A stretch of 64,000 nt of DNA. Source: Escherichia phage UGJNEcP1. The DNA lies in sequence record OV754623; one strand, written 5' to 3'. A model generated the notes under the pieces. The model searched no databases. It saw only the letters and a list, made by a program, of their open reading frames with translations, and was not told the origin of the DNA. Shown here one piece after another: positions 16,496-20,950 of the stretch (position 1 is its first letter; the number at the start of each line of letters is the position of its first letter). Made by a program: the position numbers and the translations under genes.

Positions 16496-16836
16496 TTAAA
16501 CCATTCCTTAATACGTTGCCAAATAGATTTTTGTGCTTGTTTATTTACACCAATCGAACGAATAACTGGTTGTGACTGCTGATATTCTTTATAATCTTCT
16601 TTATAGATTTCGTAAGCTGCATCAACAAATGAACTGATCGCTGCCATGTAGTTTTTACGAAGACCACCAGGAGCTACTCCATTAGGGAATTCGGAATTTT
16701 CGCGAATAATTAAATATAACCCAGCTTTAACCTTTACAATTGTCCCTAAATAAGCCCCGTGGTACCAAATATCCCATCCTTCCTGAGTAGGTTCTGCACA
16801 TTTACGAAGTTCGTTAATAATATTCAGCTTATTCAT
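16492..16836 (-). CDS. hypothetical early protein
   Basis: 114-aa ORF with ATGA-type overlap to the downstream gene. Confidence 0.45.
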
Positions 16837-16846
16837 TATGTATTCC

Positions 16847-17479
16847 TCACAGTACGTTAGTTACAAGAGTAATGATTTCTTTGGACACATTAGGGAAGTC
16901 AATGTAAGTATATTTACCACCGATCTTAATCTTAACATCATTTTCAAGAGAAGTAAACAGCTTTGATTCAGTTTCTGACATGTTGTATGCAAAGATTCTA
17001 AGAGCGCCATCTCGTCGAATTTCAATTTGGCGAATGCCTAGAACTCGTTTAGCGAATCGAACTTCTAAGTTACTACGGTTTTCACCAATTTCTTTAACTT
17101 CAACTTTATCTTTAATATTTTCAAAAACAAAGTTTGCTAATTCATGCATTTCAGGAGTAACTCCACGTGCTTTTCTAGTGTTACGTTTCTGAAGAAGTTC
17201 TGGAGCATTTTCTTGGGCAAAGAGGTCTGCAGCTTTTTGGATAATATCCATTGCTTCGCCTGTTGCTATAAGTCCATCACCAGATTTTTCGACTAAACCT
17301 TTCTTAATCAATACACCAATGTTAGAGTTAACAACCGATGCATTGTATTCAGCTTCCAGAGCTTCACGGACATTAGCAGCAGTGGTGAAGTTGTTCTTAA
17401 TGATATAAACCATTATTGCAGCAGTTTTTTCATTCAGAGCGTTTTCAGAAGCTTTGATGATGTAAGTAACTTTAGACAT
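16847..17479 (-). CDS. motA: middle-transcription activator MotA
   Basis: ORF 16847..17539; likely start at MSKVTYIIKAS as in T4 MotA; NSNIGVLIKKGLVEKSGDGLI matches T4 MotA as recalled. Confidence 0.9.
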   Translation of the reverse strand: MSKVTYIIKASENALNEKTAAIMVYIIKNNFTTAANVREALEAEYNASVVNSNIGVLIKKGLVEKSGDGLIATGEAMDIIQKAADLFAQENAPELLQKRNTRKARGVTPEMHELANFVFENIKDKVEVKEIGENRSNLEVRFAKRVLGIRQIEIRRDGALRIFAYNMSETESKLFTSLENDVKIKIGGKYTYIDFPNVSKEIITLVTNVL

Positions 17480-17518
17480 TTTATTTCTCCAATTTGGTTG
17501 TTTTGTTTTGATATGTCT

Positions 17519-17547
17519 ATAATACCATGTTTGAAGCAAAAGTAAAC
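17519..17547 (-). promoter_or_regulatory. early promoter for motA (GTTTAC, 17 nt, TATTAT)
   Basis: minus strand GTTTACTTTTGCTTCAAACATGGTATTAT, then GGAG SD and AUG. Confidence 0.55.
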
Positions 17548-17584
17548 TTTATTTTGGGCTCTTTTTCAAAAGCCCTGGTAAAAT

Positions 17585-17800
17585 TTACAAACTCATTTCT
17601 TTAATAAGGCTAATAAGTTTTGCCTTTTTAGAACGAAGCTTTTCTAAATGATGCCCATTTGAACCGCGAACCACTAAAGAATTGATTTCAACTTCTAAGA
17701 AATTTAATTCTTCAACAAGTGCTTTACGGAGAGCATTCATACCAGGTTTAACTTTACCGAAACGAGTAGTTGTGTTTTGAGTTAATTTCATTTTAGACAT
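17585..17800 (-). CDS. hypothetical small basic protein (motA.1 position)
   Basis: 71 aa; begins MSK as MotA does and shares the same promoter/leader sequence. Confidence 0.5.
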   Translation of the reverse strand: MSKMKLTQNTTTRFGKVKPGMNALRKALVEELNFLEVEINSLVVRGSNGHHLEKLRSKKAKLISLIKEMSL

Positions 17801-17839
17801 TTTATTTCTCCAATTTGGCTGTTTTGTTTTGATAGGTTT

Positions 17840-17868
17840 ATAATATCATGTTTGAAGCAAAAGTAAAC
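17840..17868 (-). promoter_or_regulatory. early promoter, near-identical copy of the motA promoter
   Basis: minus strand GTTTACTTTTGCTTCAAACATGATATTAT; about 73 nt near-identical to 17470-17545. Confidence 0.55.
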
Positions 17869-17896
17869 TGTTTTCGTGAGAAAAAAATGCACAAAA

Positions 17897-17912
17897 GGGA
17901 GCTTCGGCTCCC
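17897..17912 (-). terminator. hairpin terminator after gene 52
   Basis: GGGAGC-loop-GCUCCC followed on the minus strand by UUUUGUGCAUUUUUUU. Confidence 0.5.
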
Positions 17913-17988
17913 TAATCATGTTTGTCTAACCAATACAGCCAAATCACTAGTGCAGCTATTGCACCGAGAAATCCTAAGGCTAGGGCAC

Positions 17989-19314
17989 TCAAAGTGCCTC
18001 CAAGTCTTTAGTGTACTCTGTCACAACATCAGTAGACTTCCAATACTCGTTTTCTTCTTTCTTAGCTTTAGCTTCTTCTGCTAGTTTACGTGCTTCGTCG
18101 GAAGTGATATGGAAGATGTTAAGACCTACCAGTTTATCGACATGTTCTTTATACATTTCGATTTGTGCTAGCTCTTCAGTCAAAGCTTTACGAGTCTTGC
18201 CTTGAATCACAATTTCACCGGCAATAACTTTTTTGATGAAGTGTGCCTTAGCAAAAGCAAGTTTAAATGCTTTTTCAGATTCAAGGATTTTGTTGTCAAT
18301 ACGTTTCTGAACGTAAGTCTTACGGACTTCAACAAAATCTTTGATTAAGTCCACTACGTTATCGTAGACCGCTAATTTACCCTTTTCATTAATCACTGTG
18401 ATGTTTTGTGAACGACGTTCGATGAGACTAAAATCTTTCATGATTTTTTCGTGACGTAGCTCTTCATCATCAGGAAGCGAGTACTCTTTACGGAACTTCA
18501 CCTTAAACCCAAAGCCGTGTTCACCACAATCATCTTCCCATGAGATTAGACCTTTGTCTTCCAACGGGTCAAGAACCTTACTCACATACGTTTCACGGTC
18601 GAATTTATATGGGATTTCAGTTATCTGCATTTGAGTGCGAGATGTGAACTTATATGTTCCGTGAATCTCATAACGCCCATCAACTTCATGTACTTCACCA
18701 CGGAATTCCGGGAATTCAACTTTTGGCTTAGTGACATTTTTACCTTGAAGAGCTTGTAATACAGCCTTTTTAACTGATTTAAAACTATGAGGCAGAATAT
18801 TTGTTGCGTAACCGGTTGCAATACCAGAGACGCCATTCAAAAGAACTGTCGGAATAATAGGAAGATAGAATTTTGGTGGAACGTGTTCTTTATCTTCATG
18901 AGCTGGAGCGTATTCAGTATCTTTATAGACATTATAGAAATTTTTACTTACACGAGCAAAAATATAACGAGATGCTGCAGCTTTTTGGACTGTTCTAGAA
19001 CCAAAGTTGCCCTGGCCGTCTAACAGTGGATAGTTGTTGTTCCATGTGTTAGCCATCAATGCACCTGCATCTTGTGCAGAAGATTCGCCATGATGATAAC
19101 CTAAATCTGCAACACCTCCTGCAATTGACGCAAGTTTATGAAATTTTTCTTTATTACCACGAGCCAAATCTAATGCCCGATGAACAACAAAACGTTGAAC
19201 CGGCTTAAATCCATCAATCATGTTTGGGATTGCACGGTTTTCAACGGTGTACATCGCATATGCTAAGGCTTCGTTATCAATAATACTTTTTAGATTACGA
19301 GAATTCAATTGCAT
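17989..19314 (-). CDS. 52: DNA topoisomerase II medium subunit gp52 (GyrA-like)
   Basis: 441 aa (T4 gp52 442 aa); GyrA-like N-terminal region with DGFKPVQRFVVHRALDL and active-site Tyr region. Confidence 0.9.
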   Translation of the reverse strand: MQLNSRNLKSIIDNEALAYAMYTVENRAIPNMIDGFKPVQRFVVHRALDLARGNKEKFHKLASIAGGVADLGYHHGESSAQDAGALMANTWNNNYPLLDGQGNFGSRTVQKAAASRYIFARVSKNFYNVYKDTEYAPAHEDKEHVPPKFYLPIIPTVLLNGVSGIATGYATNILPHSFKSVKKAVLQALQGKNVTKPKVEFPEFRGEVHEVDGRYEIHGTYKFTSRTQMQITEIPYKFDRETYVSKVLDPLEDKGLISWEDDCGEHGFGFKVKFRKEYSLPDDEELRHEKIMKDFSLIERRSQNITVINEKGKLAVYDNVVDLIKDFVEVRKTYVQKRIDNKILESEKAFKLAFAKAHFIKKVIAGEIVIQGKTRKALTEELAQIEMYKEHVDKLVGLNIFHITSDEARKLAEEAKAKKEENEYWKSTDVVTEYTKDLEAL

Positions 19315-20920: not shown

Positions 20921-20950
20921 ACTATAACATAGTCCTACTTAGTTGTAAAC
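20921..20950 (-). promoter_or_regulatory. early promoter with a palindrome spanning the -10 element
   Basis: minus strand GTTTAC-AACTAAGTAGGACTATGTTATAGTAGTCCTA; inverted repeat taggacta/tagtccta around the -10. Confidence 0.45.

Follow-up and report, generated by a model that had tools for sequence, protein, structure and literature searches.

Two near-identical early-promoter cassettes in tandem upstream of motA in an RB69-like Escherichia phage

The window studied here, a stretch of 64,000 nucleotides (nt) from Escherichia phage UGJNEcP1 (OV754623), carries nearly the same promoter and leader twice in a row, once in front of motA, the gene for the activator of middle transcription, and once in front of the small gene beside it. 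How did one early-promoter cassette come to stand twice at a single locus, and what keeps the two copies alike? In our view it is very likely that the copies are tandem T-even early-promoter cassettes of the promoter-early stem-loop (PeSL) type, that they bracket a non-essential open reading frame (ORF), and that recombination deletes, inserts and homogenises the module. The window was 100% identical to OV877511 (Escherichia phage UGJNEcP2), a member of Mosigvirus, the RB69-like genus. The identification of motA was based on the annotation of a MotA-like activator in OV877511, and its N-terminus, MSKVTYIIKAS, agreed with that of T4 motA. The elements at the centre of the locus are the following.

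16847..17479, minus strand: motA, activator of middle transcription, 210 amino acids (aa), start ATG at 17479-17477.
17471..17553, minus strand: cassette copy 1 (downstream), the conserved motA promoter and leader; GTTTAC at 17547-17542, TATTAT at 17524-17519 with an upstream TG, GGAG at 17490-17487, ATG TCT AAA at 17479-17471.
17556..17575, minus strand: stem-loop 1, directly upstream of copy 1; GGGCUUUU-GAAA-AAGAGCCC followed by AAAAUAAA, U tract absent; predicted fold -12.3 kcal/mol, z -3.2.
17585..17800, minus strand: small ORF of 71 aa, phrog_6200 (function unknown), beginning MSKMKL; the cargo between the repeats.
17792..17874, minus strand: cassette copy 2 (upstream), predicted to serve the small ORF; GTTTAC at 17868-17863, TATTAT at 17845-17840 with TG at -15/-14, GGAG at 17811-17808, ATG TCT AAA at 17800-17792.
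17896..17913, minus strand: stem-loop 2, directly upstream of copy 2; AGGGAGC-CGAA-GCUCCCU followed by UUUUGUGCAUUUUUUU, with a U-rich tail; predicted fold -14.6 kcal/mol, z -3.3.

The repeat pair and its anatomy

A repeat search over positions 16500-19000 revealed a single strong family of direct repeats, namely the cassette pair upstream of motA. The two copies of 83 nt (17471-17553 and 17792-17874) matched without gaps at 77 of 83 positions (93%), the longest exact blocks between them were 27, 23 and 15 nt, and the 3' limit of the repeat lay directly after the third codon of both ORFs. These results bore out the initial annotation, which had described near-identical duplicated cassettes before motA and the small gene; the identity lay above the limit of 80 percent that it had named. 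Its intervals (17470-17545 and 17798-17872) covered the same feature but were off in register by about 6 nt and missed about 8 nt of its length. The separation of about 330 base pairs (bp) that it had given corresponded to the start-to-start spacing of 321 bp, but not to the 238 nt between the copies. It had also placed promoter boxes, a Shine-Dalgarno (SD) sequence and the first codons inside both copies, with both proteins beginning MSK, and our reading of the sequence agreed.

The pair was compared with a background set of 16 early-type cassettes (GTTTAC...TAnnnT, on the minus strand and upstream of ORFs), which were registered at GTTTAC. The 16 cassettes of the window share the boxes and a CTATCAA start region, and only the motA pair exceeded 64%. 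In this register the pair was 92% identical, against a mean of 41% (standard deviation 9, maximum 64%) for the other 119 pairs. These results indicated that the similarity of the two cassettes far exceeds the shared early-promoter consensus and is not an effect of that consensus. In addition, each half of the 83-nt repeat occurred exactly twice in the window when up to 3 mismatches were allowed, and shuffled sequences gave an expectation of 0.

Both cassettes have the same layout on the minus strand, which consists of GTTTAC, 17 nt, TATTAT as part of an extended -10 element (TGnTATTAT), a 30-nt A-rich leader, GGAG, AAATAAA and ATG TCT AAA. The promoter scan registered both copies as TTTACT, 16 nt and TATTAT with an upstream TG, and the other early cassettes of the window shared this geometry of GTTTAC, 17 nt and a -10 element. 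The AT-rich stretch before GTTTAC reads AAAATAAA / TTTTTTTCTCACGAAAACA in the two copies. From the promoter consensus, transcription was predicted to start near 17512 and 17833 on the minus strand, and both genes would be transcribed by the host sigma-70 polymerase immediately after infection. RNA folding placed both hairpins well below their shuffled controls and predicted no structure in either leader. Within this unstructured leader, both ribosome-binding sites carry GGAGAAAUAAA, which contains no C and matches the RegB/S1 consensus at 9 of 11 positions. A RegB/S1-like site on both mRNAs would allow their joint shut-off.

The hairpin of stem-loop 2 carries a rho-independent terminator annotation in ATK47; it is terminator-like, yet it fell outside the T-run rule of the terminator scan on the minus strand. 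Stem-loop 1 has no U tract, so that its terminator activity is doubtful and motA probably also receives read-through from copy 2. In Dhakavirus, stem-loop 1 reads GAGCUCUU-GAAA-AAGAGCUC, which includes one compensatory change, from G-C to A-U, at pair 2. A search of Rfam over 16500-18500 found zero RNA families, and the lone sub-threshold match (CrcZ) was the terminator hairpin.

The cassettes in related phages

The unique 238-nt segment between the copies had matches of at least 95% identity in 76 records, and about 153 Mosigvirus-type records matched the flanks. As about half of Mosigvirus is without the small gene, the gene is dispensable. In genomes that lack the unit, the 661-nt query was matched in two pieces that span about 337-340 nt and was 64% covered, which is the value for one missing 321-bp unit. 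RB69 is a single-cassette genome of this kind, and so are phi25-307 and others. The two-cassette arrangement was present with a spacing of 321 bp in 76 independently sequenced records and with a spacing of 324-325 bp in Dhakavirus.

Two markers distinguish the copies. Copy 2 has A[TC]GTGC in the spacer just after GTTTAC and AAAACAACCAAATT in the middle of the leader, and copy 1 has TTTTGC and AAATACTAATTT at these two places. In phi25-307, phiE142, G2285 and one IMG/VR contig, the single cassette was identical to the standard copy 2. The single cassette of RB69 was a chimera of a copy-2-type spacer and the copy-1 leader, and that of the Dhakavirus phage QL01 joined the upstream flank of copy 2 to the leader of copy 1 through the 41-nt core that the copies share. 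Each of the three junction types (two or more in Mosigvirus and one in QL01) is as predicted for a crossover between the copies at a different point.

The relationships of these phages were judged by raw motA distances, because neighbour-joining trees (JS98 as outgroup) were under-resolved within Mosigvirus. The results indicated that the single-cassette phages fall into at least two lineages and have two-copy nearest neighbours in each. The motA genes of RB69 and phiE142 were 4-5 nt from that of SHSML-52-1, and those of phi25-307 and G2285 were 11-12 nt from that of APCEc01. ECCR664 (OL631257) was left out of the distance comparisons because of indels in motA and the small gene. In that record the region is unannotated and the tblastn match of the small ORF was limited to residues 1-68; it is probably a low-quality assembly and not a case of real frameshifts.

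The two-copy genomes showed a patchwork of the same markers. The standard marker pattern was found in 9 of the 12 two-copy genomes, with copies 86-89% identical. In OLB35, copy 1 carried a copy-2 spacer, and in APCEc01, copy 2 carried a copy-1 spacer. In the window, both copies combined a copy-1-type spacer with a copy-2-type leader, and this was the most homogenised pair of the 12 sampled; its 93% identity is explained by the same spacer type and the same leader type in both copies.

The Dhakavirus phages JS98 and ABTNLsp5 have the same synteny, with a repeat that is confined to the 41-nt promoter core and leaders that differ. The copies of JS98 were identical at 41 of 41 positions in this core and were 3-6 nt away from the Mosigvirus copies. 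Such genus-specific core substitutions, common to both copies, are an apparent signature of concerted evolution, seen at few sites. The Dhakavirus orthologues of the small gene begin with ATG AAT AAG (MNK) and have a different SD region, while copy 2 and the motA cassette of Mosigvirus have the same last 22 nt (TTGGAGAAATAAAATGTCTAAA). The MSK start common to both proteins is best read as a footprint of conversion. The conversion tract in Mosigvirus would span the SD sequence and the first three codons (MSK in both), and in the phage of the window it would also include the leader.

In three IMG/VR contigs from other T4-like lineages (L015, L016 and L018), motA was preceded by a copy-1-type cassette that was 85-90% identical, and the gene upstream differed. 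The MotA proteins of these contigs were 65% identical, and their genes were 69-70% identical at the nt level and 53-58% at third-codon positions. The non-coding motA cassette (compared with window positions 17480-17547) is thus more conserved across genera than the motA gene itself. Because the same cassette stands before motA in other lineages, copy 1 would be the ancestral motA promoter and leader, and copy 2 would be the small gene's own promoter. An exact-pattern scan of IMG/VR with the leader found just 7 loci, among them 3 useful motA contexts from other genera and 2 unrelated chance contexts. Between the window and JS98, with the same synteny, the amino-acid identity was 75% for the small protein, 69% for MotA and 81% for gp52. 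As the divergence of the small protein is similar to that of MotA and gp52, the small gene was probably in the slot before the genera split. Judged from these sequence comparisons, the high identity of the copies is not that of a simple recent duplication and reflects exchange between the small gene's cassette and the ancestral one of motA.

The small protein itself was found in 93 phage records with one copy each (93 places), of which 76 were of the Mosigvirus type and 17 were at 72-78% identity. Its PHROGs match was PHROG 6200 alone, a family of unknown function, and a Pfam search of the 71-aa protein gave nothing significant. In the single-sequence AlphaFold model, which had a predicted local distance difference test (pLDDT) score of 82, a helical hairpin comes after a basic N-terminus that is disordered; a BFVD fold search at E <= 0.001 returned the Bp7 orthologue alone, which was uninformative. 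A search of 5.8 billion proteins with the small protein gave just 8 clusters, all from T-even types, and a related-locus search with it found JS98 and VR5 only. Two of the clusters, both metagenomic (P0003 and P0008), held 51-aa versions at 72% coverage, which may be start-site miscalls or truncated variants.

Proposed deletion, insertion and exchange between gene 52 and motA

We propose that homologous recombination and gene conversion keep the two copies alike, and that repeated excision of the 321-bp unit by recombination between the copies gave rise to the single-cassette RB69, phi25-307 and QL01. Recombination of the copies would also let the module of ORF, stem-loop and promoter enter other backbones. 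These exchanges would be made by the phage homologous recombination system acting on the repeats. For the single-cassette Mosigvirus genomes we favour an origin by deletion, after which motA would in most of them be driven from the small gene's cassette.

A transfer between genera was observed in UoN_LDJ77_1. Across gene 52, motA.1, the terminator, a T4-type motA promoter and motA, this phage was 95-100% identical to T4. A segment that T4 lacks, at -330 to -60 counted from the ATG of motA, was 90-100% identical to JS98. It holds the module in its Dhakavirus version, with small ORF, stem-loop and conserved motA-type promoter, and the breakpoints fall at the SD/ATG in both leaders. In 168 records, a different 75-aa ORF (MKFKIENEIV...) followed by the same stem-loop and promoter was found in the same slot; this version is carried by many Tequatroviruses of the ACG-C40 type and relatives and by some Klebsiella, Citrobacter and Enterobacter phages. 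Its coordinates in ACG-C40 are as follows.

L011 (ACG-C40), 1171-1398: alternative 75-aa ORF, flanked on both sides by the 23-nt leader segment CTATCAAATAAATGAACTGAAAC.

In T4, the second cassette, the small ORF and the 75-aa ORF are all absent from the slot, and the motA promoter is unrelated in sequence (27-28 mismatches of 41). In the Tequatrovirus ECO07P2 (L029, about 701-786), a cassette of about 85% similarity to the motA cassette, which includes ATGTCTAAAGT, stands before an unrelated small gene near dmd; cassettes of the motA subtype are thus present at other loci in other genomes. Taken at the level of sequence, the slot between gene 52 and motA is a recurrent exchange point that is apparently bounded by promoter-leader cassettes. 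The T4 motA promoter and leader (L001, 2104-2230) resemble the upstream promoter, in the copy-2 position, of UoN_LDJ77_1 and ACG-C40, and not the conserved motA cassette, and laboratory T4 may be a deletion derivative in which this upstream promoter was fused to motA.

The best of the alternatives, which we nevertheless regard as unlikely, reverses the order of events. In this case, a single cassette was ancestral in Mosigvirus and the 321-bp unit, for example a PeSL mini-circle, was inserted by a crossover within the resident motA cassette, so that integration left the repeats as its footprint. If a circle recombined with a chimeric cassette like that of RB69, the product would be exactly the standard pair of copy 2 and copy 1. 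Insertion is clear in UoN_LDJ77_1, with its T4 backbone, and the PeSL model is explicitly reversible (PMC2839356). However, the shared synteny with Dhakavirus, together with a divergence of the small protein close to that of MotA and gp52, makes the gene probably older than the split of the genera. Furthermore, copy 1 of the standard two-copy genomes is the intact cross-genus motA cassette, motA in most single-cassette genomes is driven by a copy-2-type cassette, and the junctions are of at least two types and are spread over at least two lineages of motA.

A second alternative holds that purifying selection or convergence alone, acting on two genes that need the same strong promoter and regulated leader, made the cassettes similar, so that recombination of the copies need not be invoked. 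The constraint on the motA cassette is indeed strong, as shown by its conservation across genera relative to motA, and the cassette near dmd in ECO07P2 stands before an unrelated gene. However, the 14 other functional-looking early cassettes of the same genome are just about 41% alike, the blockwise swaps of spacer and leader between the copies are not explained by constraint, the identity runs into three codons that differ in Dhakavirus (MNK), and the genus-specific substitutions common to both copies are likewise unexplained. We therefore consider this alternative highly improbable. A third alternative, an error of assembly or a tandem duplication that arose recently in this one genome, has practically no standing, for although the pair of the window is the most similar of those sampled (93% versus 86-93%), this reading is refuted by the recurrence of the same arrangement in the 76 independent records and in Dhakavirus.

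Several points weigh against the preferred reading of recombining tandem cassettes. The direction of change in Mosigvirus, deletion or insertion, is unprovable, because a mini-circle crossover yields identical junctions. The initial annotation had regarded the repeats as substrates for deletion or duplication; natural variants without exactly one 321-bp unit agree with the first part, but the reciprocal duplication product, with two small genes, was found in none of the 93 records. The haplotypes were read in 12 two-copy and 5 single-cassette Mosigvirus loci (17) and in 3 Dhakavirus loci, rather than in all records. The promoters, the RegB site and the read-through are predictions from consensus. 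Stem-loop 1 has no U tract, which leaves it doubtful whether it shares the "effective terminator" property of the RB49 PeSLs. Only this pair is near-identical in the window, the others having a mean of 41%, which speaks against a dispersed, highly conserved family as in RB49. Finally, the homology at the breakpoints of UoN_LDJ77_1 is very short (AAAATG), and this event may have been microhomology-mediated or derived from an unsampled donor.

Known elements, neighbouring sequences and biological meaning

A PeSL is defined as a stem-loop just upstream of an AT-rich stretch and -35/-10 boxes, with an SD sequence and a start codon at its 3' end, and the boxes of the T4/PST PeSLs are given as TTTACW...TAYWAT, with N17 printed between them (PMC4122927). 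PeSLs have been described in RB49/phi1 (Arbiol et al. 2010, PMC2839356) and in PST/T4 and nt-1/KVP40 (Comeau et al. 2014, PMC4122927). They preferentially adjoin indels, and an ORF that lies between tandem PeSLs is excised as a mini-circle (PMC4122927; PMC2839356). Neither of the two papers mentions motA, gene 52 or RB69.

The cassettes at motA have the same composite anatomy. TTTACT, TATTAT and the upstream TG of both copies fit the published boxes, and a stem-loop stands directly upstream of each promoter. The tandem pair flanks a small ORF of unknown function, and close relatives have a single, sometimes chimeric, cassette. The 321-bp unit is near in size to the PeSL210 mini-circle of about 400 bp, and the site adjoins indels and replacements, with the unit in 76 of about 153 records, the alternative ORF in 168 records and a transfer between genera. 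At the sequence level, the resemblance to PeSLs suggested in the initial annotation has held, since the anatomy fits and the locus is a site of insertion, deletion and replacement among close relatives. There are also differences. The repeat runs three codons into the coding sequence, one partner is the promoter of an essential regulator and is conserved across genera, the other early cassettes of the window are far more diverged than the RB49 PeSLs, and stem-loop 1 lacks the U tract; moreover, the record of recombination here consists of comparative footprints rather than mini-circles. Every recombinant would retain a working promoter before motA, so PeSL-type shuffling would be viable at this locus.

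The early promoters of T4 have been described as UP/-35/TGn/-10 (Hinton 2010 review, PMC2988021). The locus shares with T4 the motA gene, its position after gene 52 and a terminator, a promoter of this composition, and GGAG followed by an A-rich tract. It differs in that the promoter sequence is unrelated and T4 is without the second copy and the small ORF. RegB sites follow the consensus GGAGRAYARAA, and RegB acts well on T4 motA RNA (Durand et al. 2006, PMC1702504); the 9/11 match of GGAGAAAUAAA makes it a candidate site. Deletion and gene conversion between short direct repeats have also been described in T4 (Albertini et al. 1982, as cited in PMC4122927). The likeness lies in repeats of tens of bases placed a few hundred bp apart in a highly recombining phage, with precise loss of one unit, and the difference is that the repeats here are regulatory cassettes predicted to be functional. 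Recombination in T4 reportedly depends on homology, a dependence that is attributed to the work of Singer et al. in 1982.

Both spacers contain the MotA-box-like motif TTTTGCTTCA (17531-17540 and 17852-17861, minus strand), at about -26 to -20 and 7 nt from TATTAT, and across several genera this spacer motif is conserved in the promoter of motA. TGCTT is missing from the spacers of the other 14 early cassettes of the window, one of which (42317) has the reverse complement AAGCA. The MotA box is (a/t)(a/t)(a/t)TGCTTtA and lies 11-13 nt upstream of the -10 element (PMC1524935). A MotA-dependent middle promoter that uses TGCTTCA was rejected on spacing, as the motif lies 7 nt from the -10 element and there is no TAnnnT 11-13 nt downstream. 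A more speculative idea, to which we give little credence, is that the motA cassette is a conserved regulatory unit of a TGCTTCA operator and a RegB site that places the small protein under the autoregulatory circuit of MotA. If this were true, MotA bound at TGCTTCA would block transcription and not activate it, the small helical protein would be a dosage-matched partner or a modulator of the early-to-middle switch, and the operator function would explain why the cassette is more conserved across genera than motA.

Along the direction of transcription, all on the minus strand, the gene order is gene 52, a 26-codon ORF, a hairpin, copy 2, the 71-aa ORF, a hairpin, copy 1 and motA. The two elements upstream of the cassette region are listed here.

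17989..19314, minus strand: gene 52, topoisomerase II medium subunit, a 441-aa ORF; annotated as DNA topoisomerase II in OV877511 and syntenic with T4 gene 52.
17912..17992, minus strand: unannotated ORF of 26 codons for a hydrophobic peptide, LSALALGFLGAIAALVIWLYWLDKHD; the start codon, TTG, overlaps the stop codon of gene 52 (TTGA), and GGAGG lies 4-5 nt before it.

The 26-codon ORF is a positional analogue of T4 motA.1 and is conserved across Mosigvirus relatives. In G2285 and Dhakavirus it is swapped for a different, annotated gene of a 34-aa membrane peptide with its own terminator; thus, the small gene upstream of the cassettes is likewise exchanged between lineages. Elsewhere in the window, three other early-type promoters on the minus strand (GTTTAC at 20949, 20437 and 41576) have a common inverted repeat across the -10 element, (T)AGGACTAT..TATAGTAGTCCTA, and form the next most similar pairs, at 59-64%. 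These promoters could represent a second cassette subfamily or an operator.

With these findings the PeSL model reaches the promoter of motA as well as the RB69-like and JS98-like genera, an extension that was to be expected and overturns nothing. The added value is modest and lies in the promoter of an essential regulator as a partner, in conversion that appears to reach into coding sequence, and in a rich population record of junctions. The 321-bp unit offers a test case for deletion or mini-circle formation between 83-bp repeats, and for the effect of tandem promoters on MotA dosage. The slot beside this essential regulator is empty in some phages and holds one of two alternative cargo genes in others, and it shows at least three types of crossover junction, blockwise conversion and a clean transfer between genera. 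Collectively, the locus would be an unusually clear natural record of promoter-cassette shuffling across hundreds of sequenced T-even phages.

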